Assembly (NCBI RefSeq): GCF_000017305.1
Contig: NC_009664.2
Coordinates: forward strand, 2,250,001 to 2,282,000
DNA length: 32,000 nt
Reading direction: 5' to 3'
DNA from: Kineococcus radiotolerans SRS30216 = ATCC BAA-149
GTDB taxonomy: Bacteria > Actinomycetota > Actinomycetes > Actinomycetales > Kineococcaceae
A program made the position numbers and the translations under genes. The notes beneath the pieces are model-generated. The model saw only the letters and a program-made list of their open reading frames with translations. It was not told the DNA's origin and made no database searches. This document shows, piece by piece, positions 6,007 to 31,058 of the stretch (positions are counted from its first letter, which is position 1; each line of letters opens with the position of its first letter).

Positions 6007-6039
6007 GCGGACCCGCCCGCCGGCCTCAGCGGCGGCGCC

Positions 6040-6819: not shown

Positions 6820-6911
6820 CTCGTCCTCCGTCCCCGGGCCGCGGATCGGCCCCCGTCCTGTGGACGGGCGGGGAGGGCGGGGTGTTCCCGCCCGGCCGCC
6901 CCGCCCGGGGG

Positions 6912-7199
6912 TCAGGCGGAGCGCGCCGGCGCGTCCGGGCGGACGCGGCGCGGCGCGGCCTCCTGCAGGGCGATGCCGCTGATGGCGTCGCACAGCTCGG
7001 GCAGCGACTCCAGCACCTGCTCGGCGACCTCCAGGGGCACGGCGGCCGGGGCCAGGATCGTCACGGTCACCCGGCCCCGCGTGCTGGGCCCCTGGGAGAC
7101 GAAGCACCCGGGGACGCGCTCGGAGATGCCCGCGATGAACCCGTTGAGGTCGCGCACGCCGATCGGTCGGGTCGTCTCGATGGCAAGGACTGTCTTCAT
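6912..7199 (-). CDS. Small hypothetical protein (95 aa), ferredoxin-like beta-alpha-beta-beta-alpha-beta pattern
   Basis: ATG 7199 is preceded by GAGGAG. The alternating hydrophobic pattern is reminiscent of Lrp-C/ACT-like ligand-binding domains (inference only). The N-terminal extension of the 126-aa ORF is rejected. Confidence 0.5.
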   Translation of the reverse strand: MKTVLAIETTRPIGVRDLNGFIAGISERVPGCFVSQGPSTRGRVTVTILAPAAVPLEVAEQVLESLPELCDAISGIALQEAAPRRVRPDAPARSA

Positions 7200-7386
7200 C
7201 GTGCTCCTCGGCGCCTCAGGCGGGTGGCCGTGCCCGCCACCGGTCGGGCGGGTCACCTGACGGAGGCATCGGCACGGCTCGCCCCCGGCCACAGCCCCGG
7301 CGGCGCACTTCTCCCCGGACGGGGCAGCGCGTCACCCTCCCGGACCACTGCGCACGGCCGGCGGGGCGCGGGGCAGGATCGTCGTC

Positions 7387-8328: not shown

Positions 8329-8378
8329 GGTCGGGCCCCGGCGGGTTGTGCCCCGGCGGGTCCGGGTAGGAGCCCGTC

Positions 8379-9260
8379 ATGGCTCCTGACCAGCACACGC
8401 CCACGGACCCGACCACGCAGTACCCGGACAGCACGCCGGGGCAGACGATCCCGCACCCGGGGGTCACCTCGGACATGGGTCCCACCCCCGACCACGGGGA
8501 GGACAGCTACGTCGGCACCGGACGCCTGCAGGGCCGTCGGGCGATCATCACCGGCGGCGACTCCGGCATCGGCCGCGCCGTCGCGATCGCCTACGCCCGC
8601 GAGGGCGCGGACGTCCTGATCGTCCACCTGCCCGAGGAGCAGGAGGACGCCGACACCACCGTCGCCCTCGTGCGGGCCGCGGGGCGCAAGGGCATCAGCG
8701 CCCCCGGCGACCTGCGCGACGAGGAGTTCTGCCGCAGCGTCGTGGAGCGCGCCGTGACGGAGCTCGGCGGTCTGGACGTCCTGGTGAACAACGCCGCCTA
8801 CCAGATGTCGATCGACAGCATCGAGGACCTCTCCACCGAGCAGCTGCTGCGCACGTTCACCACGAACGTCTTCGCGACGGTGTGGCTGAGCAAGGCCGCC
8901 GTCCCGCACTTCGCGCCGGGGTCCAGCATCATCAACACCGTCTCCGTGCAGGCCGACTCCCCCTCCCCCGCCCTGCTGGACTACGCCATGACGAAGGCGG
9001 CCCTGGTCAACTTCACCCTGAACCTCGCCCAGGAGGTCGGCGAGAAGGGGATCCGCGTCAACGCCGTCGCGCCCGGCCCGGTCTGGACCCCGCTGATCCC
9101 GGCGACGATGCCCGCGGAGCAGGTCGAGGACTTCGGCACCCAGACCCCGCTCGGCCGCGCCGGGCAGCCGGCGGAACTCGCCCCCGCCTACGTGTTCCTC
9201 GCCTCCCAGGAGTCGAGCTACAGCACCGGCACGGTCATCCGGGTCGCCGGGGGGAAGTGA
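8379..9260 (+). CDS. SDR-family NAD(P)-dependent oxidoreductase (YhdF/YghA-like)
   Basis: 293 aa. TGGDSGIGRA cofactor motif, NNAA, and catalytic Y-x3-K (YAMTKAAL). AGGAG lies 6 nt upstream of ATG 8379. Confidence 0.9.
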   Translation: MAPDQHTPTDPTTQYPDSTPGQTIPHPGVTSDMGPTPDHGEDSYVGTGRLQGRRAIITGGDSGIGRAVAIAYAREGADVLIVHLPEEQEDADTTVALVRAAGRKGISAPGDLRDEEFCRSVVERAVTELGGLDVLVNNAAYQMSIDSIEDLSTEQLLRTFTTNVFATVWLSKAAVPHFAPGSSIINTVSVQADSPSPALLDYAMTKAALVNFTLNLAQEVGEKGIRVNAVAPGPVWTPLIPATMPAEQVEDFGTQTPLGRAGQPAELAPAYVFLASQESSYSTGTVIRVAGGK

Positions 9261-9266
9261 CCCCCG

Positions 9267-9306
9267 CCCCGTCGGGCCCTCCCTGGACGGGGAGGGCCCG
9301 ACGGGG
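9267..9306. terminator. Bidirectional intrinsic-terminator-like hairpin between convergent genes
   Basis: Perfect 17-bp stem (9267-9283 pairs with 9290-9306) and a 6-nt loop. Lies between the SDR stop (9260) and the LGFP gene stop (9316). No U-tract, as is usual in high-GC actinobacteria. Confidence 0.6.
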
Positions 9307-9315
9307 CTCGGGCCG

Positions 9316-10392
9316 TCACTCGCAGGCGATGCCGTCGCCGTCGCGGTCCAGGGCGGGGCGGTACCCGGGCTGACCAGCACGGATCGGGGCAGCGCCTGCA
9401 GCGCGAGCCTCGTCGCAGTTCCTGTAGTAGACGCCGGACGGTGCGGGCGGCGGCGGCGGCGGGGTCGTCGTCGGCGGAGCGGGCACGGGCACGACGGCGG
9501 CGACGGGCTGGTTCACCCGGGCCCCCGTGGCCGCCGACCACTCGACGTACCCGCGCTGGAAGTCCACCCGGCGTCCCCCGGGGACGTCGTGCTCGTCGTT
9601 CACCGGGTAGCCCAGCGACCCGTTCTCGTAGCCCGTCGAGGCGTAGGCGTCGAGGATCGCCCCGCACAGCGCGTGCGCGCCCGTGGTCGGCGACCAGTAC
9701 GCGACCCCGCCCTGGAACCGCTGGTACACCCCGCCGTCGCGGGCGGGGAGCTCCTGCGAGGTCGGGTAGCGCAGGCAGCCGTTCTCGTGGCCGAGGCGGG
9801 CGTAGAGGTCGCGGAAGGAACCCGAGACGGTGTGCGCGCCGGAGGCGGGCGACCAGTAGGCGACCCCGCCCTGGAACAGCTGGAACACCCCGCCGTCGCG
9901 GATCGGGACCTCCTGGCTCGTCGGGTAGCCGAGGAACCCGTTCTCGTGGCCCAGCGACCCGTAGAGGCGCAGGAACTCCCCCGACACCGAGTGCGCGGCG
10001 CTCGCGGGGGACCAGTAGAGGGTCCCTCCCTGGTAGTTCTGGAACACCCCTCCGGCCCGGGTCCCCACCTCACCGGAGACGGGGTAGTGCAGGAACCCGT
10101 TCTCCCAGCCGGTCGCGGCCCACAGGTCGCGGAAGGAACCGGAGACGTCCCAGGCCCCGGAGGCCGGGCTCCAGTAGACGGCCCCGCGCTGGAACGTCGC
10201 GAACCGGCCGTCGGCCGTCGGCTGCTCGCAGCCCGTGACCGCCCCCAGCCGGCCGGACGTCCCGCCGAGCTGCGCGTAGCGGGCGTCGACGGCACCCGTC
10301 AGGCAGGTGTCGGCCGACGCCGTGCCCACCCCCGCCACGAGGGTTCCGCTCAGCACCAGCAACGCCGTCATCGCCTTCACCGCACCGCGCAC
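9316..10392 (-). CDS. Secreted LGFP-repeat protein with C-terminal Excalibur calcium-binding domain
   Basis: 358 aa. Signal peptide (…GVGTASA/D), five about-50-aa LGFP-type repeats (ENGFLGYPTS…GGVFQ.FQGG..YWSP), Pro-rich linker, and C-terminal YYRNCDEARAAGAAPIRAGQPGYRPALDRDGDGIACE. Confidence 0.86.
   Translation of the reverse strand: MRGAVKAMTALLVLSGTLVAGVGTASADTCLTGAVDARYAQLGGTSGRLGAVTGCEQPTADGRFATFQRGAVYWSPASGAWDVSGSFRDLWAATGWENGFLHYPVSGEVGTRAGGVFQNYQGGTLYWSPASAAHSVSGEFLRLYGSLGHENGFLGYPTSQEVPIRDGGVFQLFQGGVAYWSPASGAHTVSGSFRDLYARLGHENGCLRYPTSQELPARDGGVYQRFQGGVAYWSPTTGAHALCGAILDAYASTGYENGSLGYPVNDEHDVPGGRRVDFQRGYVEWSAATGARVNQPVAAVVPVPAPPTTTPPPPPPAPSGVYYRNCDEARAAGAAPIRAGQPGYRPALDRDGDGIACE
9523..10296 (-). 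repeat. Five tandem coding repeats (LGFP units, about 144-156 nt period)
   Basis: Repeated protein units are visible in the ORF. DNA-level recurrence of ccagta(c/g)gcgaccccgccctggaac… blocks. Confidence 0.8.
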
Positions 10393-10564
10393 GCGTTCCC
10401 CCGGAGCTCACGCTGAGCAGTTCCTCAGCTACACGGCGCAGCCTAGGGCGTCCGGCGCCGGGAGGGGCGCCGTTCGGCACCTCCGCCCACCCCGGGCCGG
10501 GCCGGCGCAGGGACGGGCGTGGCAGAGTCCTCCGGTCACCGCTGAGCCGCACCCGAGGAGCACC

Positions 10565-11527
10565 GTGCCGGACCCGTCCCCCCTCGCCCCCCTCGTCGTG
10601 GTCGTCACCACCGGCGGCACCATCGCCAGCACCGTCGACGAGGACGGGGTGAGCCGCCCGACCCTGGGCGGCGACGCGCTGCTCGGCACCGCCGGCGACG
10701 AGGCCGGTGTCCGGGTGCGGGTCGTCGAGGCGCTGCGGGTGGACTCCTCCACCCTGACCCTCGCCCAGGCCGACCTGGTCCGCGCCCGGGTCGCGGAGGC
10801 GCTCGCCGACCCCGGCGTCGCCGGGGTGGTCGTGCTGCACGGCACCGACTCCCTGGAGGAGACGGCGTACCTGCTGGACCTGCACCACGACGACCCCCGT
10901 CCCGTCGTCCTCACCGGCTCCCAGCGCACCGCCGACCACCCCGCCCCCGATGCCCCCGCCAACGTGCGGGAGGCGCTGCGGGTCGCGGCGGACGGGCTGG
11001 CCCGCGGGCAGGGGGTCCTCGTCGCGTTCGGCGGCCGCGTGCACGCGGCCGCCGGGACGACCAAGCGCCACACCACCGACCTCGACGCCTTCGCGGCCCC
11101 CGACAGGGCGCTGCCCCGGGCCGGGGCGCTCACCGCCGTCGGCTCCCCGGACGCCCCGTGGCCGCGGGTGGACGTCGTCGCCGCGCACCCGGGCACCGAC
11201 GGCGCGCTGCTGGACGCGGCGCGGGAGCTGGGCGCGCGGGGGGTCGTGCTGCAGGGCCTGGGGTCGGGGAACGCGACGGCGGAGGTCGTCGCCGCGGTGG
11301 CGCGCGCCGTCGCCGCGGGGGTGGTGGTCGTGCTGACGACGCGGGTGCCCGCCGGTCCCGTCGCGACCAGCTACGGCTCCGGCGGCGGGGGTGCGGAGCT
11401 GGCCGCGGCCGGGGCGATCCCGGCGGGGCGGCTGCGGGCCGGGCAGGCGCGGGTGCTGCTCGCGGTGCTGCTGCGCGCGGGCGCTGACCGCGGGGAGGTC
11501 GCCCGGGAGTTCGCGCGCCGCGGCTGA
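10565..11527 (+). CDS. L-asparaginase (type II-like)
   Basis: 320 aa from GTG 10565, with GAGGAG 4 nt upstream. Catalytic TTGGTIAS motif, HGTDSLEETA, and LQGLGSGN. The upstream part of the 10307 ORF overlaps the LGFP gene start and is rejected. Confidence 0.85.
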   Translation: MPDPSPLAPLVVVVTTGGTIASTVDEDGVSRPTLGGDALLGTAGDEAGVRVRVVEALRVDSSTLTLAQADLVRARVAEALADPGVAGVVVLHGTDSLEETAYLLDLHHDDPRPVVLTGSQRTADHPAPDAPANVREALRVAADGLARGQGVLVAFGGRVHAAAGTTKRHTTDLDAFAAPDRALPRAGALTAVGSPDAPWPRVDVVAAHPGTDGALLDAARELGARGVVLQGLGSGNATAEVVAAVARAVAAGVVVVLTTRVPAGPVATSYGSGGGGAELAAAGAIPAGRLRAGQARVLLAVLLRAGADRGEVAREFARRG

Positions 11528-18818: not shown

Positions 18819-20438
18819 ATGGGTCAGCAGGGGCGCACGACGGGATCGACCGGCTCGCGCAGCGGGTTCGGCCGGTGGCTGGCGAACCGCCGCGTGGGCA
18901 CCCGGCTGCTGGCCGCGACGGCGCTCGTCGCCGTGTCGGCGCTCGTCGTGGGGTTGTTCAGCCTCTCGGTGGTGCAGAACCTGCAGACGCAGCGCCAGGA
19001 GGAGGTCGGGCGCGCCGTCCCCTACATCACCGGGCTGCAGCAGGCCGCCCTGGCCGCGAAGTCGGCCGCCACCGACGAGCGCGGCTACTTCATCACCGGT
19101 GAGCAGGAGTACGCCGAGGAGAGCCTCGGGCGCCAGGAGGCCTTCGACGCCGCGATCGCCACGGCCCGGGACTCCGCGAGCACCGACGCCGAGCGCGCCG
19201 TGGTCGCCGGCGTCGAGGAGGACGTCCACGCCTGGTTCGAGGCGCTGCGCGCGGAGTACGCGCTGGCCGCCACCGACCGCGACGCGGCCGTCGCCGTGTC
19301 CTTCGGGGCCAACCGCGACGCCCGCAAGGCCTACGAGGGGGTCCTCGCCGAGGAGACCGAGCGCGCTGGCACGGCGCTCGCCGCCGGCCAGGACTTCGCT
19401 GCCACCGTCCGCCGGGGGCAGCTCGCCGTCCTGACGCTGCTGGTGGTCAGCCTCGCCGTCGCGGTCGGGGCCGCGCTCGTCGCCCGCCGCAGCATCGTCG
19501 CCCCGCTGCGCCGGGTCACCGACGTCCTCGCCCGGGTCTCCGACGGCGACCTCAGCGCGACCGTGGACCTCGACACCCGCGACGAGATCGGTTCCATGGC
19601 GCGGGCGCTGGACCACTCCACCGTGCGCTTCCGCACCGCCATGCAGCAGATCACCGGCAGCGCCGGCCGCCTGGCCGGGTACGCCGAGCAGCTCACCCGC
19701 GTCTCCACCCAGCTCTCCGACGGGGCGGAGCAGTCCGCCGACCAGTCGAAGGTCGTCTCCGCGGCCACCGAGGAGATCTCCGCCAACATCGGGACCGTCG
19801 CCGCCGCCGGGGACGAGATGTCCTCGGCGATCCGCGAGATCGCCTCCTCCACCGCCGAGGCCTCCTCGGTGGCCGCCGCCGCGGTCTCCTCCGCCGCCGA
19901 GGCGTCGGCGACGCTGGAGCGGCTGTCCGCCTCCTCCCGGGAGATCGGCGACGTCGTCAAGCTCATCACCTCCATCGCCGAGCAGACGAACCTGCTGGCG
20001 CTGAACGCCACCATCGAGGCGGCCCGAGCCGGGGAGATGGGCAAGGGCTTCGCCGTCGTCGCCGGTGAGGTGAAGGAGCTCGCGCAGCAGACCGCGCGGG
20101 CCACCGAGTCCATCACCAGCCGGGTGGGCACCACCCAGGCCGACGCGGTCGCCGCCGCGGCCGCCATCGCCGACATCGGCGAGGTCATCGCCCGCATCGA
20201 CGGGTTGCAGTCGACCATCGCCGCGGCGGTGGAGGAGCAGTCCGCGACGACGTCGGAGATGGTCCGCAACGTCACCGAGGTCTCCACCGGCTCGCAGGAG
20301 ATCGCCTCCAGCGTCTCGGGGATGGCCGCCTCCGCCGCCGACACCACGGTCAGCGCCACCGCCACCGCCCGGACCGCCGCCGAGGTCGACGACACGGCCC
20401 GCGAGCTGCAGGGGCTCGTCAGCGTCTTCCGCTACTGA
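18819..20438 (+). CDS. Methyl-accepting chemotaxis protein (4-helix-bundle sensor, TM, HAMP, MA domain)
   Basis: 539 aa. HAMP ([18 protein letters not shown]) and the conserved signalling hairpin ([37 protein letters not shown]). Confidence 0.92.
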
Positions 20439-20465: not shown

Positions 20466-21272
20466 TCACTCGCAGGCGAGGCCGTCGCCGTCGCCGTCCA
20501 GGGCGGTGCTGTAGCCCGGGTCGCCGGTGCGGACCGGTGCCGCGCCGGCGGCGCGGGCGGCGGCGCAGTCCGCGAACGCCGCCCCGGTGCTCGGTGTCGC
20601 GGTCGCGGTCGGGGCCGGTTCGTCGCAGTCGGCCAGGACCCGGGCCATCGCGTCCTTCTCGGCCCGGGTGACCCAGAGGCCGTACTCGGCCTTCACGCTG
20701 ATCTGGCGCCGGACGTAGGTGCAGCGGTAGGCGGTGTCCGGCGGCAGCCAGGTCGCGGCGTCACCGTCGCCCTTGGCCCCGTTGGTGGGCCCGTCGACGG
20801 CGAGCAGTTCCAGCGGGTCGTTGGCGAACTCGACGCGCTTCTCCTCGTCCCACGCCTGCGCGCCCTTCTGCCAGGCGTCGGAGAGGGCGACGACGTGGTC
20901 GATCTGCACGGCCCCGCTGGTGCCCTGCCCGCGCTCGAACCCGATGGTCGACCCGCTGTAGGGGTCGTGGAGGGTTCCGCTGCGCACGACGCAGTCCCCC
21001 GTCCCGGGCACGAACTCGACGTCGACGAGGTCGCGGGCCAGGACGTCGTTCCTCGTGTCGCAGCCGTTGCGGTCGGTGTCGACCCAGCCGGAGCCGAACT
21101 CCTCGCGGGAGTACCCCGTCTTCGGGGCCCGGCCCTTGACGGTCAGCGCCTCGAGGGCGGCGTCGTCGGACCGCGGTCCCTCGTCCGGGGTCGTGGTGCA
21201 GCCGGTGGTCCCGCCCGCGAGCAGGGCCAGCGCGAACCCGAGGGCGAGCGCGCGGGCGGTGCGCGGCCTCAC
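20466..21272 (-). CDS. Secreted (lipoprotein-like signal) DUF1524/HNH-type nuclease with C-terminal Excalibur domain
   Basis: 268 aa. Signal ALALGFALALLAGGTTGC. DUF1524-like core (TGYSREEFGSGWVDTDRNGCDTRNDVLARDL…QIDHVVALSDAW…NDPLELLAVDGPTNGAKGD…WLPP). C-terminal CAAARAAGAAPVRTGDPGYSTALDGDGDGLACE. Confidence 0.85.
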   Translation of the reverse strand: MRPRTARALALGFALALLAGGTTGCTTTPDEGPRSDDAALEALTVKGRAPKTGYSREEFGSGWVDTDRNGCDTRNDVLARDLVDVEFVPGTGDCVVRSGTLHDPYSGSTIGFERGQGTSGAVQIDHVVALSDAWQKGAQAWDEEKRVEFANDPLELLAVDGPTNGAKGDGDAATWLPPDTAYRCTYVRRQISVKAEYGLWVTRAEKDAMARVLADCDEPAPTATATPSTGAAFADCAAARAAGAAPVRTGDPGYSTALDGDGDGLACE

Positions 21273-21774: not shown

Positions 21775-24588
21775 GTGCTGATCCTGCTCACCGTCCACGC
21801 CGTCGCCGCCGTCCTCGCCGTGCCCCTGGTGCGGCGGCTGGACCGGCGCGCGTTCCCGCTGCTCGCCCTCGTCCCGGCCGCGACCACCGTCTGGGCCGCG
21901 GTCCAGGGCCCCGCCGTCCTCGCCGGGAACGGCCCCGAGCTCGTCGTGCCCTGGGTCCCCTCGCTGCAGGCCGAACTGGCGTTCCGCCTCGACCCGCTGT
22001 CGTGGGTGCTGACGCTGCTCGTCGGCGGGGTGGGCGCCCTCGTGCTGTTCTACTGCGGCAGCTACTTCCCCGCGCGGAACCCCGGGAGCGCGCGGTTCGC
22101 CGCCGTCCTCACCGCGTTCACCGGCGCCATGACCGGTCTCGTCCTCGCCGACGACCTCGTGCAGCTGTACGTGTTCTGGGAACTCACGACGGTCTTCTCC
22201 TACCTGCTCATCGGCTACGACTCGCACGAGAGGGCCGCCCGCCGCGCCGCCACCCAGGCCCTCGTCGTGACGACGCTGGGCGGGCTGGCGATGCTCGTCG
22301 GGCTGATCGTCCTGGGCCAGAGCGCGGGGACCTACCGGCTGTCGGCGCTGCTGGCGGAGTTCCCCACCGGGACCGCCGCGACCGTCGCCGTGGTGCTCGT
22401 CCTCGTCGGGGCCGTCTCGAAGTCGGCGCTGGTCCCCTTCCACTTCTGGCTGCCCGCCGCGATGGCCGCCCCCACCCCCGTCAGCGCCTACCTGCACGCC
22501 GCGGCCATGGTGAAGGCCGGCGTCTACCTCGTCGCCCGCTTCGCCCCCGCCGCCGCGGACCTGCCCGCCTGGCAGGTCACCGTGATCGGCCTGGGACTCA
22601 CGACCATGCTCGTCGGCGGGTACCGCTCGCTGCGCCAGCACGACGTGAAGCTGCTGCTGGCCTTCGGCACCGTCAGCCAGCTCGGGTTCCTGATCGTCCT
22701 CGTCGGCGCGGGCACCAAGGCGGCGACGGCCGCCGGGATCGCGCTGCTCGTCGCCCACGCCACCTTCAAGGCCGCGCTGTTCCTCGTCGTCGGGATCGTC
22801 GACCACCAGACCGGGACCCGCGACCTGCGGGAACTGTCCGGGCTGGGCCGGCGGATGCCGCTGCTCGCCGTCGTCGGGACCGTCGCCGCGGCCTCGATGG
22901 CCGGGGTGCCGGTCACCCTGGGGTTCGTCGCCAAGGAAGCCGCCTACGAGGCGTTCCTCCACGACCGCCCCTGGGTCCTCGTCGTCCTGGTGCTCGGGTC
23001 CGTCCTCACCGCCGCCTACTCGGCGCGGTTCGCGTGGGGGACGTTCGCCCGCAAACCCGGGGTCCCCGACTCCACCGCGCCGCGACCCTCCGCCGCGCTC
23101 ATCGCCGCGCCCCTCGTGCTGGCCGCCGCCACCCTGCTCCTCGGCCCGCTGGCCGGGCTGGTGGACCGCCCCGCCGTGCTCATCACCCACGGGGTCCCCG
23201 GGGAGGAGGCCGAGCACCTCGCGCTCTGGCACGGGTTCACCACCGTCCTGCTGCTGACCGCGGTGACCCTGGGCCTCGCGGGCGCCCTGTTCGCGGGGCG
23301 GTCCGCGGTCGAGCGCGTCCAGGCCCGCCTGCCGCACCCGCCCGCCGCCGACCAGGCCTACCGGCGCAGCGTGCGGGCCGTGGACCGGGTCGCCGTCGAG
23401 GTCACCGGCGCCACCCAGCGCGGTTCGCTGCCGATCTACCTCGCCTCCATCCTCCTCGTCGTCGTCCTCGTCCCCGGCGGGGCGCTGTTCCGCACCCGCC
23501 CCTGGCCCGACGACGTCGTGCTCGCCGACAGCGTCGGGCAGGTGCTCGTGGGGATCGTCGTGGTCACCGCCGCCGTCCTCACCGTCCGCGCCCGCCGCCG
23601 GCTGCGCGCGGTGATGCTCGCCGGGGTCACCGGCTACGGCGTGACGCTGCTGTTCGTCCTGCACGCCGGCCCCGACCTCGCGCTCACCCAGGCGCTGGCC
23701 GAGACGATCACCCTCGTCGTGTTCGTCCTCGCCCTGCGGCGGCTGCCCCCGTTCTTCTCCTCCCGCCCCCTCGTCGCGACCCGCTGGATCCGGATCGCGA
23801 TCGGGGTCGCCGTGGGGATCTGCACCTCCTGCGCCGCCCTCGCCGCCTCCGGCGCGCGGGTCGCGGTGCCGACGTCGCTGGACCTGCCCCGGTGGGCCTA
23901 CGAGTACGGCGGGGGGAAGAACGTCGTCAACGTCACCCTCGTCGACGCCCGCGCCTGGGACACCATGGGCGAGATCTCGGTGCTGCTCGTCGCCGCCACC
24001 GGGGTCGCCAGCCTGGTGTTCCGCCGCCGGATGGGGTCCATCGACCGGGCCCTCGCCGCGCACACCGACCCCGACGAGGCCCCGCCGCAGCGCAGCCGCG
24101 GCGCGAACTGGCTGCCCGCCAGCAGCACCGTCTCCCCCGAGCGCCGGTCCGTGGTGTTCGAGGTGGTGACCCGGCTGACGTTCCACGCCATCCTCGTGCT
24201 GTCGCTGTACCTGGTGTTCGCCGGGCACAACTCCCCCGGCGGCGGGTTCGCCGGCGGTCTCGTCGCCGGGCTCGCCCTGCTCGTGCGCTACCTCGCCGGC
24301 GGCCGCTACGAGTTCAACACGGCCGTGCCCGTCAACGCCGGCTGGCTGCTGGGCAGCGGCCTGTTCCTGTCCGCCGGCACCGGCCTGGTGGGGATCCTCA
24401 TCGGCCAGGACGTCCTGCAGACCGCGATCGTCGAGTTCGACGTCGTCGTCCTCGGCCACGTCAAGCTCGTCACGTCGGTGTTCTTCGACGTCGGGGTCTA
24501 CCTGCTGGTCGTCGGCCTCGTCGTCGACGTCATCCGCAGCCTGGGCGCCGAGATCGACCGCCAGATCGAGGAGGAGGTCTCCGCGTGA
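21775..24588 (+). CDS. mrpA: Na+(K+)/H+ antiporter Mrp/Mnh subunit A (fused MrpA-MrpB)
   Basis: 937-aa polytopic protein with an NuoL-like N-terminal part (WELTTVFSYLLIGY, KSALVPFHFWLP.AMAAPTPVSAYLH) plus an MrpB-like C-terminal part. No separate mrpB is present. Confidence 0.92.
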   Translation: MLILLTVHAVAAVLAVPLVRRLDRRAFPLLALVPAATTVWAAVQGPAVLAGNGPELVVPWVPSLQAELAFRLDPLSWVLTLLVGGVGALVLFYCGSYFPARNPGSARFAAVLTAFTGAMTGLVLADDLVQLYVFWELTTVFSYLLIGYDSHERAARRAATQALVVTTLGGLAMLVGLIVLGQSAGTYRLSALLAEFPTGTAATVAVVLVLVGAVSKSALVPFHFWLPAAMAAPTPVSAYLHAAAMVKAGVYLVARFAPAAADLPAWQVTVIGLGLTTMLVGGYRSLRQHDVKLLLAFGTVSQLGFLIVLVGAGTKAATAAGIALLVAHATFKAALFLVVGIVDHQTGTRDLRELSGLGRRMPLLAVVGTVAAASMAGVPVTLGFVAKEAAYEAFLHDRPWVLVVLVLGSVLTAAYSARFAWGTFARKPGVPDSTAPRPSAALIAAPLVLAAATLLLGPLAGLVDRPAVLITHGVPGEEAEHLALWHGFTTVLLLTAVTLGLAGALFAGRSAVERVQARLPHPPAADQAYRRSVRAVDRVAVEVTGATQRGSLPIYLASILLVVVLVPGGALFRTRPWPDDVVLADSVGQVLVGIVVVTAAVLTVRARRRLRAVMLAGVTGYGVTLLFVLHAGPDLALTQALAETITLVVFVLALRRLPPFFSSRPLVATRWIRIAIGVAVGICTSCAALAASGARVAVPTSLDLPRWAYEYGGGKNVVNVTLVDARAWDTMGEISVLLVAATGVASLVFRRRMGSIDRALAAHTDPDEAPPQRSRGANWLPASSTVSPERRSVVFEVVTRLTFHAILVLSLYLVFAGHNSPGGGFAGGLVAGLALLVRYLAGGRYEFNTAVPVNAGWLLGSGLFLSAGTGLVGILIGQDVLQTAIVEFDVVVLGHVKLVTSVFFDVGVYLLVVGLVVDVIRSLGAEIDRQIEEEVSA

Positions 24589-25022
24589 GTCCCAACCTGA
24601 CGCTCGTCGTCGTCTCCGGGGTGCTCGTCGCCTGCGGCGTCGCGCTGCTGCTGGAACGCACCCTGACCCGGGTGATCGTCGGGGTCGTGCTGCTCGGCAA
24701 CGGCATCAACGTGCTGTTCCTCGTCGCCAGCGGCCGGCCCGGGGTCGCCCCGTTCGTCAAGGGCGGCGCGACCGCGGAGACCATGAGCGACCCGCTGCCG
24801 CAGGCGATGGTGCTGACCGCCATCGTCATCACCCTCGGCATGGTCGCGTTCGTCCTCGCCCTGGCCTACCGCAGCTGGCAGGTGGACGGGCACGACGAGG
24901 TCCAGGACGACGTGGAGGACCGCCGCATCGTGCGGCGGGCCGAGCTCGACGAGACCTCCGCCAGCTACGACGACGACACGCGCGACACCAGCGTGGACGA
25001 GGGCGAGGGGGTTTCCCGGTGA
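24585..25022 (+). CDS. mrpC: Mrp/Mnh antiporter subunit C (NuoK-like) with acidic C-terminal tail
   Basis: 145 aa from GTG 24585 (GTGA overlap with mrpA). Three TM segments (LLLERTLTRVIVGVVLLGNGINVLFL… DPLPQAMVLTAIVI). Confidence 0.9.
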   Translation: MSPNLTLVVVSGVLVACGVALLLERTLTRVIVGVVLLGNGINVLFLVASGRPGVAPFVKGGATAETMSDPLPQAMVLTAIVITLGMVAFVLALAYRSWQVDGHDEVQDDVEDRRIVRRAELDETSASYDDDTRDTSVDEGEGVSR

Positions 25023-26596
25023 CCGAGTGGGCGCGGATCCTCATCCCCCTGCCCGTCGTCCTGCCGCTGTTCGCGGCCGGGCTGACCCTGGCCCTGGCGC
25101 GGCGCCCGCGGGCCCAGCGCACCATCAGCGTGAGCGCGCTGAGCGTCGTCGTCCTCGCCTCGGTGACGATGCTGGTGCTGACCGACCGCGGGAGCGGCAC
25201 GTACTCGATCGACGTCGGCGGCTGGCCGGCGCGGCTGGGGATCCCGCTGGTCGCGGACCGGCTGTCGACCCTCATGCTCGTCGTGAGCTCCGTCGTCACC
25301 CTCGCCGTCCTGCTGTACTCCCTCGCGCAGGGCGTCGCCGACGGCGAGGAGGGCACCCCCGTCTCGATCTACCACCCGACGTACCTGGTGCTCTCGGCCG
25401 GCGTCTCCAACGCGTTCCTCTCCGGGGACCTGTTCAACCTGTACGTGGGGTTCGAGATCCTGCTCGCCGCGAGCTACATCCTGCTGACCCTGGGCGGGAC
25501 GAAGGCCCGGGTCCGGGCGGGGACCACCTACGTGGTCGTGAGCCTGCTGTCCTCGATGGTGTTCCTCACCGCGATCGCCCTGGTCTACGCGGCCACCGGC
25601 ACGGTCAACATGGCCGAGCTGTCGCTTCGGCTGCAGGAGATCGACCCCGACGTCCGCCTCGTGCTGCACCTGCTGCTGCTCGTCGGGTTCGGCATCAAGG
25701 CGGCGGTGTTCCCGCTCTCGGCGTGGCTGCCGGACTCCTACCCCACCGCCCCCGCCCCGGTCACCGCGGTGTTCGCGGGGTTGCTGACCAAGGTCGGGGT
25801 GTACGCGATCATCCGCACCGAGACGCTGCTGTTCCCCGGCGGGGAGGCGAGCACGCTGCTGCTGTGGGTGTCGCTGGCGACGATGGTGGTGGGGATCCTC
25901 GGCGCCGTCGCGCAGAACGACGTCAAGCGACTGCTGTCCTTCACCCTCGTCAGCCACATCGGGTACATGGTGTTCGGGATCGCGCTGGGCACCGCGGCCG
26001 GGTTGTCCGGCGCGGTGTTCTACGTCGCCCACCACATCACCGTCCAGACCACCCTGTTCCTCGTGACCGGGCTGGTGGAGCGGCACTCCGGCAGCACGTC
26101 GCTGGACTCGCTGGGCTCGCTGGCGAAGCGGGCCCCGCTGCTGGCGGTGCTGTTCTTCGTGCCCGCGATGAACCTCGCCGGGATCCCCCCGTTCTCCGGT
26201 TTCCTCGGCAAGCTGGGGCTGCTCCAGGCCGGCGTCGACGTCGGGACCACCTCGGCGTACGTCCTCGTCGCCGGCGGGGTGCTGACGAGCCTGCTGACGC
26301 TCTACGCGATCGCGAAGGTGTGGAACCGGGCGTTCTGGCAGGAACCCCTCCTCGACCCCGAGGACGACCCCCGCGCCCACGGCGTGGGCGGTCTCGCCAC
26401 CGCCACCGAGGTCGGGGTCCGCACCCCGGCGGGCATGGTCGTGCCGACCGCGGCGCTCGTCGCCGTCGGGGTCGGGATCACGTTCGTCGCCGGACCGCTG
26501 TTCGGCGTGGCCGACCGCGCCGCGCGCGACCTGCTGGACCGCGCGCCCTACACGTCCACCGTCCTGCACGACCGGGTCCCGGAGGTCGGCCGGTGA
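25019..26596 (+). CDS. mrpD: Mrp/Mnh antiporter subunit D (NuoN/M-like)
   Basis: 525 aa. GTGA overlap at 25019-25022. Motifs FNLYVGFEILLAASYILL and AAVFPLSAWLPDSYPTAPAPVTAVFAGLLTKVG. Confidence 0.92.
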   Translation: MTEWARILIPLPVVLPLFAAGLTLALARRPRAQRTISVSALSVVVLASVTMLVLTDRGSGTYSIDVGGWPARLGIPLVADRLSTLMLVVSSVVTLAVLLYSLAQGVADGEEGTPVSIYHPTYLVLSAGVSNAFLSGDLFNLYVGFEILLAASYILLTLGGTKARVRAGTTYVVVSLLSSMVFLTAIALVYAATGTVNMAELSLRLQEIDPDVRLVLHLLLLVGFGIKAAVFPLSAWLPDSYPTAPAPVTAVFAGLLTKVGVYAIIRTETLLFPGGEASTLLLWVSLATMVVGILGAVAQNDVKRLLSFTLVSHIGYMVFGIALGTAAGLSGAVFYVAHHITVQTTLFLVTGLVERHSGSTSLDSLGSLAKRAPLLAVLFFVPAMNLAGIPPFSGFLGKLGLLQAGVDVGTTSAYVLVAGGVLTSLLTLYAIAKVWNRAFWQEPLLDPEDDPRAHGVGGLATATEVGVRTPAGMVVPTAALVAVGVGITFVAGPLFGVADRAARDLLDRAPYTSTVLHDRVPEVGR

Positions 26597-27195
26597 GCGC
26601 GAAGGTGCTGTCCCTGCGCGAGCGGATCAGCCTGCCCCTGCTGGTCTGGCTGGTCGTCCTGTGGCTGCTGCTGTGGGGCGACCTGTCGTGGGCCAACGTG
26701 ATCTCGGGGACCCTGCTGGGGCTGCTCGTGACGATCGTCCTGCCGCTGCCCCCGGTGCGCTTCGACGTGCGGGTCCGGCCGCTGCGGATCCTCGCCCTGC
26801 TCGCCCGGTTCGTCGTGGACCTGTTCGCGGCCAGCGCCCAGGTGGCGTGGCTCGCGGTGCGGCCCGGGCGGCAACCGCGGAACTCGGTGGTGGGGGTCCC
26901 CCTGCACAGCGGCTCGGACCTCTTCGTGTCCATGACCGCCCAGCTGGTGTCCCTGGTGCCGGGGTCGGTGATCGTCGAGATCGGGGCCCCCTCGGCCCAC
27001 GAGGGGCAGGGCTCGATCTACGTCCACGCCCTGGGCGTCGACACCGCCGAGGGCCGGGAACGGATCCGCCGCCAGACGCTGCTGACCGAACGGCGCGTCA
27101 TGCGGACCTTCGCGGCCCCGCGCGTCTACGCCGAGTACCTGGAACGCTGCCGGGCCGACGGCTCGGACAGCCTGTGCGGAGGGGAGTCCCGGTGA
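26593..27195 (+). CDS. mrpE: Mrp/Mnh antiporter subunit E
   Basis: 200 aa. GTGA overlap at 26593-26596. Position in the operon and the LVWLVVLWLLLWGDLSWANVISG N-terminus are typical of MrpE. Confidence 0.82.
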   Translation: MSAKVLSLRERISLPLLVWLVVLWLLLWGDLSWANVISGTLLGLLVTIVLPLPPVRFDVRVRPLRILALLARFVVDLFAASAQVAWLAVRPGRQPRNSVVGVPLHSGSDLFVSMTAQLVSLVPGSVIVEIGAPSAHEGQGSIYVHALGVDTAEGRERIRRQTLLTERRVMRTFAAPRVYAEYLERCRADGSDSLCGGESR

Positions 27196-27470
27196 CCGTG
27201 GTGGTCGGGCTGTGCCTGGGGATGCTGACGGTCGCGGCGCTGCTGGCGCTGCTGCGGGTGGCCAAGGGACCCACGATGCTGGACCGCGTCGTGGCCCTCG
27301 ACGTCGTCGTCGCGGTCGTCGTCATCGCGCTGTGCGTCGAGGCGGCCGCGAACCGGCACGCCACGACCCTGCCGGTCATCGTCGTCCTCGCCCTGGTGGG
27401 TTTCGTGGGGGCGGTCAGCGTGGCGCGGTACGCGGCGAAGGAAGCGCCGCAGGAGAGGGGCGAGCGGTGA
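27192..27470 (+). CDS. mrpF: Mrp/Mnh antiporter subunit F
   Basis: 92 aa. GTGA overlap at 27192-27195. Motif LRVAKGPTMLDRVVALD. Confidence 0.86.
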   Translation: MTVVVGLCLGMLTVAALLALLRVAKGPTMLDRVVALDVVVAVVVIALCVEAAANRHATTLPVIVVLALVGFVGAVSVARYAAKEAPQERGER

Positions 27471-27838
27471 ACGGGTCCGTGGACTGGTCGGGGATCGCCG
27501 ACGTCGTCTCCGCGGTCTGCCTGCTGCTGGGCTGCCTGCTGACGCTGCTGGCGGCGATCGGGCTGCTGCGGCTGTCCGACGTGCTCGCCCGGATGCACAC
27601 CACCGCGAAGCCCCAGGTCCTGGGCGTCGTCCTCTCCCTCGTCGGGGTGGGGTTGCAGCTGCGCCGGGAGACCGACGTCGCCACCCTCGTCGCGATCGCC
27701 GCGTTCCAGCTGCTGACCGTCCCCGTCGCCGCGCACCTGGTGGGCCGCGCCGCCTACCGCACCGGGCAGGTCGACCCGGCCCTGCTCGACCACGACGACC
27801 TCGCCGAGCGGCTGGCCGAGGAGGAACGCTCCGGCTGA
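27467..27838 (+). CDS. mrpG: Mrp/Mnh antiporter subunit G
   Basis: 123 aa. GTGA overlap at 27467-27470. Motif IGLLRLSDVLARMHTTAKPQVLG. Confidence 0.86.
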   Translation: MNGSVDWSGIADVVSAVCLLLGCLLTLLAAIGLLRLSDVLARMHTTAKPQVLGVVLSLVGVGLQLRRETDVATLVAIAAFQLLTVPVAAHLVGRAAYRTGQVDPALLDHDDLAERLAEEERSG

Positions 27839-27955: not shown

Positions 27956-28294
27956 TCAGCGGGCCCGGTCCCGCCCACCTGCGGGCGGGTCGACGACGGC
28001 CCCTGCGAGGGCGACGACGTGGCCGATTTGCACGTCGGCACTGGTACCCGCTTCGCGGATGAAGGCGATCGAACGACCGGAGTACGGATCGGCCAGGATC
28101 CCGCTCAGCACGGTGCAGCCGTCGCGGTCCAACGTGATGGCGCTCAGGTCCCGGAGCAGGATGTCGTTGCGGGTATCGCACCCGTTGGCGTTGACGTCTA
28201 TCCGCGCTGTGCCGAACAGCTCACGTGCGTAGCCGGTGCGCGGAGTCCGGACCTCGACCTCCGAGGTGTCCTGCGCGGTGCGCGCCTCACCTCG
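27956..28294 (-). pseudogene. Truncated/decayed DUF1524-type nuclease paralogue, with no start codon or signal peptide of its own
   Basis: My codon-by-codon translation gives EVEVRTPRTGYARELFGTARIDVNANGCDTRNDILLRDLSAITLDRDGCTVLSGILADPYSGRSIAFIREAGTSADVQIGHVVAL. This aligns with residues about 44-135 of the intact nuclease at 20466-21272. Homology is lost after HVVAL (D-to-G change in the DH motif, then stop at 27956). Faint further similarity appears in another frame down to about 27850. Confidence 0.65.
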
Positions 28295-29215
28295 TCAAGT
28301 GCCGGCGTAGGAGACGGTCGCCCCAGCGGCAGGTGTCCAGGTGATCGAGCCGCCCTGGAAGTCGCTGCGCCGCCCGCCGGGTACGTCGTACTCGTCGCTG
28401 GTGGGGTAGCCCAGCCGACCGGTCTCCCAGCCCTGTGCCGCCCATGCGTCGCGGATGGCCCCACGCACCAGGTGCGCGCCGGTGGCCGGGGACCAGTAGA
28501 TCGAGCCGCCGGTGAAGTGGTTGAACGCCCCGCCGCGGATCGGGGTCTCGCTGGTGCTCGGGTAGCCCAGCACCCCGTTCTCCCAACCGGTGGCGCCCCA
28601 CTTGTCGAAGACCAGCCCACGCACGGCGTGGGCGCCGGTGGCCGGGGACCAGTAGACGGAGCCGCCCTGGAAGTGGTTGAAGGCTCCGCCGCGGATGGCG
28701 TTCTCACCGGTGGTGGGTAGGCGCAGCCAGGAGGTCTCCCAGCCCATGTCCGCCCAGCGACCCTTGATGGCTCCGCGCACGTCCTGCGCGCCGGTGGGCT
28801 CAGACCAGTAGATGGAGCCGTTGATGAAGTGGGTGTAGCGGGCGGTGCCGTTGGGCGTGGCCAACTCACAGGTGGTCGAGGACCCCAGCACGCCGGTGGC
28901 CCCGCCCAGGAAGAGCCAGCGGGCCTCGATGGCTCCGCGCACGCACGGCTGCGGGGGAACCGGCGCGGGCGGCGGGCTGGTGGGGCGGTGCGGCAGGGAC
29001 TCGCAGGCGACGCCGTTCTCCGGGTTGCCATCGAGGTTGTCGGGGTCGCCGGGGTGGCGGTTGAGGTGGTCCTGCGCGTCCTCCTGGTAGGTGAAGTCCG
29101 AGCAGTTCACGTCCCCGATGTGATCGGCCCAGGCCGGAGTCCCGCTCAGGGCCCCGATGCTCACCACTGCCAGTGCTGCGGCCGCACCGCGCCGTGCCCA
29201 CGTTGCCACGCTCAT
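28295..29215 (-). CDS. Secreted LGFP-repeat protein with N-terminal Excalibur-like domain
   Basis: 306 aa. Signal peptide (…GTPAWA/DH), VNCSDFTYQEDAQDHLNRHPGDPDNLDGNPENGVACE, Pro-rich linker, and four LGFP units (WENGVLGYPSTSETPIRGGAFNHFTGGSIYWSP). Confidence 0.85.
   Translation of the reverse strand: MSVATWARRGAAAALAVVSIGALSGTPAWADHIGDVNCSDFTYQEDAQDHLNRHPGDPDNLDGNPENGVACESLPHRPTSPPPAPVPPQPCVRGAIEARWLFLGGATGVLGSSTTCELATPNGTARYTHFINGSIYWSEPTGAQDVRGAIKGRWADMGWETSWLRLPTTGENAIRGGAFNHFQGGSVYWSPATGAHAVRGLVFDKWGATGWENGVLGYPSTSETPIRGGAFNHFTGGSIYWSPATGAHLVRGAIRDAWAAQGWETGRLGYPTSDEYDVPGGRRSDFQGGSITWTPAAGATVSYAGT
28307..28936 (-). repeat. Four tandem coding LGFP repeat units
   Basis: Repeated about-52-aa units are visible in the ORF translation. 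Confidence 0.8.
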
Positions 29216-29523
29216 GTCGTCCCCCTGTGTGCGGGAGCCACCTCGCTCCGTCGCCTCAAGCTAACTGAGCCCCTGGCGCCGGCGGGCCGTTTCACCGCAC
29301 CGCCAGCTCGATGGCTGTGTTGCGCTCGCACGGGTCGGGCTGGGCCAGGGCCGGCGCGCTCGACCTGGCCACCGATCCCCGGTCGGTCCGCGTGATCGAC
29401 ATCGACCATCGACACCGTAGGGGCCGCTCTGATGGGCGCTGTCACGGTCTGCCCTAGGAACGAACGGGAGCGTCGGCGACGGCAGGACCGCGTGGTTCAG
29501 CGGTGGAGCCCTAGCCTGACTCA

Positions 29524-30291
29524 GTGATCACTGCGGGTGGCGACCTTGCGACCCAGCCCGCCAAGACGGGCCTCGCCGTCATCGAGTGGCGGCCCGACGA
29601 AGCCCGGCTCACGAGGCTGCAGCTGGACGTCACCGACCGCGACATCGTCGGGGCGGCACTGACGGCGCAGAAGGTGGGGATCGACTGCCCGCTGGGGTGG
29701 CCGGACGACTTCATCGCCTTCATCACCGCGCACGCCGGCGGCCGCGTCGAGCTCCCCACCGCCGAAAGCGGCGACGAGTTGCGCCGGCGCCTGGCCTACC
29801 GCCAGACCGACCGAGTGGTGCGTCAGGCCGGCTACTCACCCCTGAGCGTCGCAGCCGACCGCATCGGGCTCACCGCGATCCGGGTGGCCATCATCCTCGA
29901 AGATCTCGCCGCAGCGGGGGCGCCGGTGGACCGCTCCGGAGCGGGGGTCGTCGCCGAGGTCTACCCGGCGGCGTCCCTGGGCCGGTGGGGCTTGGCGCAC
30001 CGGCAGTACAAGCGCGAGAGCAACCGGGCGGCGCGCGAGGCGCTGGTCGCTGCGGTGCGCGAGCAGGTGCCGTGGTTGGACCTCGGCGGACACGGGCCGC
30101 TGTGCGAGGACTCCGACGATGCGCTGGACGCCGTCGTCGCGGCCCTGACCGCGCGGGCTGCGGCGTTGGGTCGCTGCGACTCGCCGCCTGAGCACGACAC
30201 GGAGCGAGCCCGGCGGGAAGGGTGGATCCTGCTGCCGAACGGGCCCCTGTCGACCCTGGTGCTGGACGACTCCGATGGAGGATCGAGATGA
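29524..30291 (+). CDS. DUF429-family protein (predicted RNase H-like-fold nuclease)
   Basis: 255 aa, GTG start. Motifs recalled for DUF429: VGIDCPLGWP, AEVYPAAS, and SDDALDAVVAALTARA. No convincing RBS. Confidence 0.72.
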   Translation: MITAGGDLATQPAKTGLAVIEWRPDEARLTRLQLDVTDRDIVGAALTAQKVGIDCPLGWPDDFIAFITAHAGGRVELPTAESGDELRRRLAYRQTDRVVRQAGYSPLSVAADRIGLTAIRVAIILEDLAAAGAPVDRSGAGVVAEVYPAASLGRWGLAHRQYKRESNRAAREALVAAVREQVPWLDLGGHGPLCEDSDDALDAVVAALTARAAALGRCDSPPEHDTERARREGWILLPNGPLSTLVLDDSDGGSR

Positions 30292-30673
30292 CACGTCGGT
30301 GGCGCTCGTGAGAGGCGATGAAGCCCGGGTGGTCGCGCAGTTCAGTGCGTGGTTGCAGGACGCCGGGTGGCAGGTCAGCACCGAGGTCGACTTCTGCGAC
30401 GTGGTGGCTACCCGGGGCGGGCAGACCCTGTACGCGGAGGCGAAGGGACGCACCACGTCCCCGGGGCTGGACGTCGACACCATGTACGGGCAGCTGCTGC
30501 GCCGGATGCTTCCTCAGGTGGGCGAGGACGTCAGGTACGCGGTGGTGGTGCCGCAGGCGGCACGGACCCACGCCCTGCGGGTACCCGAAGCGATCAGGGC
30601 GAGGCTGAACGTCGATGTCTACGTCGTCTCCGACGAAGGCAGCGTGGAAGCCGTCACGTCGCCTCACGTGTGA
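30275..30673 (+). CDS. Small PD-(D/E)xK (restriction-endonuclease-fold, Hjc/NucS-C-like) protein
   Basis: 132 aa from ATG 30275; GTG 30299 or 30308 are alternative starts. Candidate catalytic set E16 … D42 (CDVVA) … E55-A-K57 (LYAEAKG), followed by YGQLLRR. Overlaps the DUF429 gene by 17 nt. Confidence 0.62.
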   Translation: MEDRDDTSVALVRGDEARVVAQFSAWLQDAGWQVSTEVDFCDVVATRGGQTLYAEAKGRTTSPGLDVDTMYGQLLRRMLPQVGEDVRYAVVVPQAARTHALRVPEAIRARLNVDVYVVSDEGSVEAVTSPHV

Positions 30674-30765
30674 GCCATCGCTGCTGGTGAAGCTCGTGAT
30701 CAGCCAACTCCTGCCTGAGCCGCGACCGTGCGGACTTCCCGGCAGAAGACCACGGGCTGCACGCG

Positions 30766-30782
30766 CCACGTCAGTGACGTGG
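30766..30782. repeat. Perfect 17-nt palindrome CCACGTCA-g-TGACGTGG in a noncoding spacer
   Basis: Read directly. 8-nt arms around a single central base. Lies 93 nt downstream of the PD-(D/E)xK gene stop. Confidence 0.8.
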
Positions 30783-31058
30783 ACGAGCAGCCGGCGGCTC
30801 TTGGAGGCTGCGCTCACCCGCAGAGGAGACAGGTTCTTGGACGATTCGCGCAGGCGTGTCGGGTAGCCGCCAGATGCGCATCACAGGCAGGTGCTCCTGA
30901 GACGACTGCCCGCACCCGGCACCTCCCCGGCAGGCAGGCAGGCCGCCGCAGCGCAGCAGCTCACTCGTTCGCCGGATCGAGGCGACGGCGGCCGACGCCG
31001 ATGCCGTTGAGGAGGCAACCAGCCACGGGTAGGCGTGGACCGAACCCGTGGAGGCGGT

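Follow-up and report, generated by a model that had tools for sequence, protein, structure and literature searches.

When two nuclease genes overlap in a bacterial genome, do they belong to one system? The question is raised by a locus of Kineococcus radiotolerans SRS30216 = ATCC BAA-149 (assembly GCF_000017305.1, contig NC_009664.2, forward-strand positions 2,250,001 to 2,282,000). This whole stretch of 32,000 nucleotides (nt) is called the window here, and all coordinates are counted from its first letter. Close to its end lie the gene of a DUF429 protein (gene A) and that of a small PD-(D/E)xK protein (gene B), which a first-pass annotation made from the letters alone had taken for a novel two-nuclease module. 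The two open reading frames (ORFs) are as it described them: A at 29524-30291 with a GTG start and 255 amino acids (aa), B at 30275-30673 with an ATG start and 132 aa. Public gene callers annotate the same two genes.

The best reading is that A and B form a cassette ~1.4 kb long, from about 29.40 to 30.83 kb, which mobile elements have spread among Kineococcus. We consider it an optional two-nuclease cargo of these elements, the association of its genes being facultative but recurrent, and give this reading a probability of about 0.5. By fold and motif both genes encode intact nucleases under selection. As a conserved two-gene system, A and B are not supported: each gene usually occurs alone.

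The cassette comprises the following parts:

29409..29523, + strand: conserved non-coding 5' part of the cassette, including CCTAGCCTGA at 29510-29519; DNA homology to L068
29524..30291, + strand: gene A, DUF429 protein (PF04250), RNase H-like/RuvC-like nuclease by fold, 255 aa, GTG start
30308..30673, + strand: gene B from the GTG start conserved in the family (V/M-R-G-D-E in homologues), 121 aa, minimal PD-(D/E)xK protein
30275..30673, + strand: gene B from the annotated alternative ATG start, 132 aa, 17-nt overlap with A
30674..30835, + strand: conserved non-coding 3' tail of the cassette; homology to L001, L069 and L068

Here and below, loci are numbered with L and proteins with P. In a genome with 74 % GC most long ORFs are spurious. 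A and B are real genes because they show a coding-type distribution of GC over the three codon positions (GC3 >> GC2, GC1 > GC2), have hundreds to thousands of homologues and are under purifying selection, the ratio of non-synonymous to synonymous divergence (dN/dS) being 0.20-0.33 for A and 0.13-0.30 for B.

A cassette on mobile elements

The limits of the cassette are set by its DNA homology, which ends where unrelated flanks begin: at 29409-30778 with L068, at 29508-30835 with L001 and at 29510-30675 with L060. The identity to L068 is 85.5 % across 29409-30778. The 3' tail remains homologous up to 30835 in L001, 30825 in L069 and 30778 in L068. The cassette is mobile as a unit. The contexts in which it is found number at least four, and the majority contain genes of mobile elements (transposase, integrase, resolvase or relaxase):

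L001: DDE transposase, tyrosine integrase and resolvase
L002: HNH and RNase_T genes
L060: relaxase and DndB-like gene
L068: resolvase 250 nt downstream
L061 (A deleted): relaxase, resolvase and ImmA-like gene

Gene B is also carried by 22 actinobacterial plasmids (Rhodococcus, Streptomyces), and a tblastn search for B homologues in phages gave none.

Some other carriers of B deserve mention. In Blastococcus sp. TF02-8 (L028 2295-8275) a Toprim/AAA_25 primase-like gene is followed by B, by a serine resolvase that overlaps B by 4 nt and by a tyrosine integrase. B lies between a resolvase and an integrase in L009, and an integrase directly follows it in L040. In these three loci B stands at the edge of an integrative element.

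Fusions and the partners of gene B

DUF429 and B are also met within one polypeptide. Five fusion proteins (P0264, P0391, P0392, P0393, P0321; 369-386 aa) have both catalytic motifs intact. Their B domain is 49 % identical to that of the window (E=7e-31), whereas their DUF429 domain, which represents a second subfamily, has no detectable BLASTP similarity to A (E=2.3). Since B adjoins one DUF429 subfamily and is fused to another, the two have been joined independently at least twice. In L070 a B-domain ORF is followed by a DUF7669-DUF6884-GIY_YIG_2 gene and then, on the opposite strand, by a second-subfamily DUF429 gene of the P0264 type.

The second subfamily carries other domains in the slot of B: a RusA-like resolvase domain (P0505, Kineosporia), PDDEXK_4 (P0430) or a zinc ribbon. 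Because RusA or PDDEXK_4 takes this slot in related proteins, B is probably a structure-specific DNA endonuclease. In the fusions with B, RusA or PDDEXK_4, as in the window pair, DUF429 precedes the second nuclease. These fusions differ from the pair in being single polypeptides and in using the second subfamily, and they were found only on metagenome contigs and in a Kineosporia genome.

DUF429 is one partner of B among several. About 10 % of the top 150 representatives of the B family are fusions:

UDG-superfamily domains: P0265, P0287, P0300, P0302, P0246
DUF1643: P0268, P0288
GIY_YIG_2: P0278
HNH: P0325
DUF429: P0264, P0321
unannotated domains: two proteins

Some of these families also turn up at B loci, beside B or fused with it:

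GIY_YIG_2: L018, L026, L039, L070, L071, L098, L108, L109
DUF1643: L003
UDG-like domains: L047, L104

Abasic or ribonucleotide lesions have been proposed as the targets recognised by DUF6884 (PMC11701544), a domain fused to GIY_YIG_2 in L070 and L150. In L150 (Kineosporia sp. A_224, 4343-11272) a DUF429-RusA gene lies between a DUF1643 gene on the minus strand and a DUF7669-DUF6884-GIY_YIG_2 gene; nearby are genes for an SMC_N/AAA_23 (SMC-like) ATPase and for a protein of 332 aa in which a PD...E-T-K motif can be seen by eye. From this gene cluster it follows that the partner families of B cluster with each other too, and the cluster may be a fuller multi-gene system. The second-subfamily DUF429 gene of L151 has no nuclease-rich neighbourhood.

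Two minor observations belong here. In L152 (5001-6257) a stand-alone second-subfamily DUF429 gene is followed 10 nt later by a 134-aa gene without a Pfam match. It was considered as a second A-B pair and rejected, as the small protein is not a B homologue; its N-terminus (MARYVIDAPTLL…) looks PIN-type-like by eye. The Streptomyces sp. NBC_01463 plasmid CP109469.1 (L065 4620-5393) encodes a B-containing protein of 257 aa whose N-terminus is extended by about 125 unannotated aa; this extension has no Pfam match and may be another fusion partner. The gene adjoins one of the replication-relaxation family.

How often does the pair recur?

The association was counted in 135 B loci, 55 from genomes and 80 from metagenomes, in which DUF429 was sought by tblastn with A and then with hidden Markov models for both subfamilies. 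The outcome, together with several other results, weighs against the cassette reading and is given here in one place.

An A-type DUF429 gene stands beside B in 3/135 loci (2/55 genome, 1/80 metagenome), all of them Kineococcus or Kineococcus-like. The genome loci are those of Kineococcus sp. DK006 (L001) and K. indalonis (L002), the only ones of the 55 with a DUF429 gene within 6 kb of B; the intact pair occurs once among the metagenome loci, in L068. If any DUF429 is counted, only L070, with its second-subfamily gene, has to be added. Lack of co-occurrence in other genomes had been named beforehand as refuting the module, and what was found is near-absence. When the ORFs within 4 kb of B were clustered over the 55 genome loci, no conserved neighbour emerged; what recurred was B itself and antisense shadow ORFs. 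The 74 immediate neighbours of B match 84 Pfam families, and no family is matched by more than three of them.

Each gene is also found without the other. Homologues of A without B lie in five contexts, their identity to A being 85 % (Kineococcus sp. DK002), 78 %, 78 %, 70 % and 65 % (Kineococcus sp. DK004); the DNA homology between the DK002 locus and the window ends at 30267, just short of B. Conversely, B occurs without A in an element represented by L061, L062, L067 and L069, with a B 90 % identical to that of the window. In this element (e.g., L061 5208-5768) window positions 29407-29454 are fused directly to 30173-30680, so that 48 nt of the region upstream of A, the last ~118 nt of A and an intact B are kept. 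This B is still under purifying selection. The intact version of the cassette in L068 comes from a metagenome of the same study series as the A-deleted element.

The divergence of the two genes is discordant. The synonymous divergence (dS) between L001 and L002 is 0.20 for A and 1.13 for B; between the window and L001 it is 0.60 for A and 0.24 for B. Hence B, together with the 3' end of A, has been exchanged by recombination independently of the rest of A, and the two genes are not in strict co-evolution.

Three further points have to be put on the same side. The RusA match of P0505 lies exactly at the Pfam threshold (22.8 bits), the D-x-D-N-x-x-K motif being visible by eye. Consensus scans revealed neither promoters nor terminators at the cassette, such scans being weak for actinobacteria. 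Finally, the substrates assigned to A and B below rest on analogy with a distant DUF429 protein (RelZ) and on domain-swap logic.

All this can be taken to mean that A and B are unrelated accessory genes which became neighbours once, in a Kineococcus mobile element, and have since been inherited together by virtue of their 16-80 nt proximity, with no cooperation. Such hitch-hiking agrees with the overwhelmingly stand-alone occurrence of both families and the variability of their neighbours, with the deletion of A that left B undecayed, with the absence of B beside the nearest homologue of A (L058, 85 %), with the discordant divergence and with the origin of the overlap as a recent deletion artefact (see below). 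It does not easily explain why a different DUF429 subfamily was fused to B in five proteins with both active sites intact, nor why L070 again has B near a gene of this subfamily. Moreover, at least four changes of context have left both genes intact and under selection, and by a rough estimate chance adjacency to the rare DUF429 would account for less than 0.1 events per ~100 independent contexts. Hitch-hiking is a possibility to be kept in mind, if an unlikely one. Were it correct, the locus would be ordinary accessory cargo and would teach that a short gene overlap in one genome is no evidence for a system.

Of the proposed two-nuclease module, the link between DUF429 and B stands, being backed by the five fusions; the conserved system does not, the pair being present in 3/135 B loci. 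The observations of the first-pass annotation are thus partly confirmed, as genes, folds and motifs hold while overlap and palindromes fail. Its interpretation stands in part: the locus encodes two nucleases whose link is real but facultative, they do not form a conserved system, and B has no specific likeness to Hjc.

Gene A

To judge from profile and model, A is an ordinary member of DUF429 with a RuvC-like fold and intact acidic residues. It matches Pfam DUF429 (PF04250) with E=3.8e-33 and 115.5 bits (cut-off 23) over profile positions 3-213 of 214, and the K. radiotolerans DUF429 protein P0121 is 100 % identical to it. No NCBIfam model exists for A, and searches against PDB sequences and profiles gave no match. 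Residues D7, D54, E145 and D202 are invariant in 35 homologues. The AlphaFold model has a predicted local distance difference test (pLDDT) score of 92.6 and a helical insertion at 55-140. When it was compared with the PDB by Foldseek, RuvC came first (probability 0.99), followed by RuvX, the poxvirus resolvase and terminase nucleases. The early assignment of A to DUF429 and to the RNase H-like fold is thereby borne out.

The closest structure is that of RuvC (7xhj, probability 0.99), with a template modelling (TM) score of 0.51 normalised to RuvC, and the positions of the acidic residues seem compatible with those of RuvC. The resemblance has its limits: the identity is 12-14 %, A has ~100 additional residues in its helical insertion, the TM score normalised to A is just 0.34, and ruvAB genes are not found near A.

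DUF429 has been placed in the RuvC-containing clade D of the RNase H-like superfamily (PMC3985635), with which the fold of A agrees. As described there for the family, A conserves the acidic residues in the first strand and in the C-terminal helix. According to the same survey, DUF429 genes keep a conserved genomic context and give no indication of mobility; the subfamily of A, in contrast, is found in variable contexts with mobile elements. Hydrolysis of RNA:DNA hybrids and R-loops has been shown for the DUF429 domain of M. smegmatis RelZ/MSMEG_5849 (PMC4429107, PMC7591505), so that the earlier statement of an activity predicted but not shown is outdated. RNase HII-type activity within DUF429 is known only for MSMEG_5849 (PMC4429107, PMC7591505). 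A matches the model of the family, of which RelZ is the characterised example, far above its threshold and has the RNase H-like/RuvC-like fold of the family. Unlike RelZ (MS_RHII-RSD, MSMEG_5849), it is a single-domain protein without a RelA/SpoT or NUDIX partner.

A also matches the PADLOC models of PDC-S44, with E=2.2e-13 for residues 47-243 and 5.1e-5 for residues 1-57; the matches are partial and the models have no curated cut-off. They bring up the idea of an anti-phage or anti-plasmid defence in which A and B would destroy invading DNA. The cassette and B are found on mobile elements and on plasmids, frequent carriers of defence cargo, and a few neighbours are of the defence type: a DndB-like gene, type II methylases, NERD-UvrD and, beside the related genes of L150, the SMC-like ATPase. 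The HNH, GIY-YIG and glycosylase-like partners of B resemble effectors of modification-dependent restriction enzymes. PDC-S44, however, is a single-gene candidate, predicted only, for which no literature was found and to which B does not belong. B has no PADLOC match of its own, and its immediate neighbours are mostly non-defence genes. The surroundings in the window (Mrp antiporter operon, LGFP gene, GGDEF gene) form no recognisable defence island. The cassette has no sensor, ATPase or immunity partner, and two constitutive nucleases without a mechanism to distinguish self from non-self would be toxic. Defence is thus distinctly unlikely. That no named system matches the pair, as had been claimed, is correct: PADLOC offers a single-gene candidate for A and nothing for B.

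Gene B

By conserved residues and predicted structure, B is a minimal PD-(D/E)xK protein of an unannotated, mainly actinobacterial family, which comprises 551 clusters at 90 % and 762 at 50 % identity. Above threshold, B is matched by none of the Pfam, NCBIfam or PADLOC models, and sequence and profile searches against the PDB returned nothing meaningful. In 37 sequences, D42 and E55 (numbered from the ATG) are invariant and K57 and E16 at least 90 % conserved; a GLDVDTxYGQLLRR block is invariant among homologues. The AlphaFold model (pLDDT 87.6) has an alpha-beta-beta-beta-alpha-beta core (H7-29, E33-38, E41-47, E50-56, H63-77, E86-93). The D...(D/E)-x-K motif is located on strands 2 and 3 and is kept in every fusion protein inspected. 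All significant Foldseek matches of the model are PD-(D/E)xK proteins. Sub-threshold Pfam matches in a few family members lead to UPF0102, SfsA, MmcB-like and AHJR-like, all of the PD-(D/E)xK clan. The four residues proposed at first sight, E16, D42, E55 and K57, are thus the conserved ones. Both nuclease folds withstood the profile and structure searches, that of A by Pfam and Foldseek and that of B by Foldseek, and the catalytic residues are conserved in either protein.

The comparison of B with Hjc proved too specific. B has the minimal PD-(D/E)xK core and the same D...E-x-K spacing as Hjc; the catalytic residues of the S. solfataricus enzyme, which we take to be E12, D42, E55 and K57, are numbered almost as in B. 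Pfam aligns the Hjc model (PF01870) weakly with residues 33-79 (12 bits versus a cut-off of 21.1, E=0.22), and at E<=1 the profile finds 3/37 family members. In structure searches Hjc first appears at rank 15, below XisH, AF2093, YaeQ and Bax1. Its TM scores are 0.35-0.43 with E of 0.02-0.13 (4tkd, 1gef, 1ob8), i.e., ~0.37 against ~0.6 for XisH. The GLDVDTxYGQLLRR block and two C-terminal strands are specific to the B family.

The closest solved structures are XisH-family proteins (2okf, 2inb) and AF2093 (2ph7), which share the size (~130 aa) and the minimal PD-(D/E)xK fold of B (TM 0.54-0.60, E 5e-5 to 3e-4); the identity is just 14-20 %. One may therefore ask whether B is an XisH-like accessory factor of site-specific recombinases that controls excision or integration of its carrier, with A being incidental. 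XisH and XisI are required for XisF-mediated excision (PMC4874684). B is sometimes encoded beside recombinases, directly so in L009, L028, L040, L068 and L001, the enzyme being of the serine type in L009, L028 and L068 and serine or tyrosine recombinases being represented overall. A recombinase lies within 6 kb of B in just 8/55 genome loci, though, and the XisH profile (PF08814) matches none of the 37 family members at E<=1. An XisI-like partner was not seen, neighbour clustering over the 55 genome loci having disclosed no conserved small partner gene. XisH is cyanobacterial, B mainly actinobacterial. Fusions to nucleases and glycosylases fit an enzyme and not a directionality factor. This role appears highly improbable.

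Among predicted viral structures, the closest are MmcB-like (TM 0.52-0.64), and one B family member weakly matches the MmcB-like Pfam model (PF06319; E=0.022, below threshold); the identity to B is 12-16 %. These viral proteins are annotated as DNA repair proteins, and a contribution to the damage tolerance of the radiation-resistant host has to be considered: A would clear R-loops and embedded ribonucleotides like RelZ, and B would incise near lesions. The RelZ DUF429 domain indeed removes R-loops under UV stress (PMC7591505), and B is fused to UDG-superfamily domains and DUF1643 and has DUF6884, the proposed recogniser of abasic or ribonucleotide lesions, as a neighbour (PMC11701544). Against host repair stand the patchy distribution even within Kineococcus, B being absent beside A in both DK002 and DK004, and the placement in mobile elements. 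The GC at third codon positions is 0.90 for A and 0.86-0.88 for B, below the 0.94-0.99 of core genes. The MmcB and XisH similarities of B are at fold level only (TM 0.5-0.64). We consider host repair very unlikely.

One loop of B tolerates large insertions. The K. indalonis protein (P0007, L002 4357-4842) has a low-complexity insertion of ~40 aa (…SRAGVQHGTSDRNACDHTSSSTGGDATGEVPGNPAG…), which separates the GQLLRRM helix from the strand that follows, and that of K. arenarius a shorter one in the same loop.

How the two nucleases might act

If the cargo cassette is what we think it is, its mode of action may be pictured as follows. A and B would be transcribed together from a leaderless promoter at the start of A. 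By analogy with RelZ, A would first incise an RNA:DNA hybrid or a branched intermediate; B would then cut the adjoining or opposite DNA strand, with a break or the resolution of the branch as the result. As accessory cargo, the pair may process the element's own replication or recombination intermediates or attack competing DNA. The partnership would be useful, not obligatory.

The fusion partners (glycosylase-like, GIY-YIG, HNH, DUF429) point to B as a second-cut nuclease. In general terms, B may be a module that different lineages attach to enzymes making the first specific recognition or incision on DNA, such as DUF429 (RNase HII/RuvC-like), UDG-like, DUF1643, DUF6884-GIY-YIG or HNH proteins. 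Such a second cut would serve DNA cleavage directed at lesions, modifications or structures on the plasmids and integrative elements of actinobacteria.

A wider and more speculative view starts from B rather than from the pair. The B domain (MRGDE...D-x12-E-x-K...GLDVDTxYGQLLRR) would be a modular nuclease joined to enzymes that recognise unusual DNA, in two-step systems of actinobacterial mobile elements that first recognise and then cleave. UDG-like and DUF1643 base-flippers, DUF6884-GIY-YIG and the RNase HII/RuvC-like DUF429 would be the partners, and lesions, modifications and branched structures the targets. The Kineococcus cassette, the DUF429-B and the DUF429-RusA fusions would be members, and L150 a fuller version. 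We put this forward tentatively and think it rather unlikely in this broad form. B is at any rate an unannotated family inside a well-known superfamily, and its partner network is a more interesting lead than the pair.

If the link between A and B is functional, it provides a partner-based functional handle on DUF429, which is widespread yet seldom named in the literature searched, and a new PD-(D/E)xK family of ~760 clusters that the Pfam, NCBIfam and PADLOC models have missed.

The junction, the start of gene A and the palindromes

The 17-nt overlap of A and B had been read as a sign of co-translation. It depends on the choice of ATG 30275. Of 36 aligned B homologues, 27 start at M/V-R-G-D-E; the equivalent codon of the window is GTG 30308, 16 nt past the stop codon of A. 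The A genes of K. arenarius (L060) and K. indalonis (L002) keep the ancestral stop (...LVED*), and B starts 65-81 nt on, at the codon conserved in the family. A deletion of ~45 nt, common to the window, L001, L061 and L068, has removed this stop; A has since run on into a lineage-specific C-terminal extension, its last 7 codons (LDDSDGGSR). The overlap is thus a recent, lineage-specific accident, arising from the deletion and the selected ATG, and as evidence of translational coupling it was rejected on the strength of the junction alignment and the family start. Co-transcription, which had been deduced from the overlap, loses this argument but remains likely, because the genes lie on the same strand with tight spacing and no terminator is predicted between them.

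Directly before the start of A stands CCTAGCCTGA (29510-29519). It is kept in 6/7 aligned Kineococcus-type A genes, with or without B, and is degenerate in L059. It contains TAGCCT (29512-29517), which precedes the GTG of A by 6 nt and resembles the -10 element of actinobacteria; this points to a leaderless mRNA that begins at the start of A.

Two palindromes had been regarded as flanks of the module:

29522-29533: CAGTGATCACTG, at the start of A
30766-30782: CCACGTCAgTGACGTGG, downstream of B

Palindromes are not in excess over shuffled sequences (arm 6: 6 observed versus 5.1; arm 8: 1 versus 0.45). The first codes for the conserved M/V-I-T N-terminus of A, and L001 and L002 do not keep it intact. 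In L001, L068 and L069 the second lacks conservation, its right arm varying without compensating changes. By the shuffle test and these conservation checks, the palindromes were dismissed as meaningful flanks.

The surroundings in the window

In the K. radiotolerans chromosome the cassette is inserted between an LGFP gene and a GGDEF gene. The neighbouring features are:

18819-20438, + strand: CHASE3-HAMP methyl-accepting chemotaxis protein, upstream of the Mrp operon
20466-21272, - strand: GmrSD_C (DUF1524) + Excalibur nuclease gene, intact
21775-27838, + strand: complete Mrp/Mnh-type multisubunit cation/proton antiporter operon (fused MrpA/B, then C, D, E, F, G)
27956-28294, - strand: decayed fragment related to the GmrSD_C + Excalibur gene
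28295-29215, - strand: LGFP/Excalibur protein
from about 31059: GGDEF protein

Rfam and tRNA scans of the window gave no matches. The Mrp operon and the chemotaxis gene are ordinary housekeeping surroundings. The decayed nuclease gene that had been reported near the pair is indeed there, as the fragment 27956-28294. It is presumably a paralogue of the intact gene at 20466-21272, both matching the same homologues in L001 and L002. These GmrSD_C homologues precede the cassette by 3-4 kb in L001 and L002 also, and a slightly larger island may therefore share its origin with the cassette.

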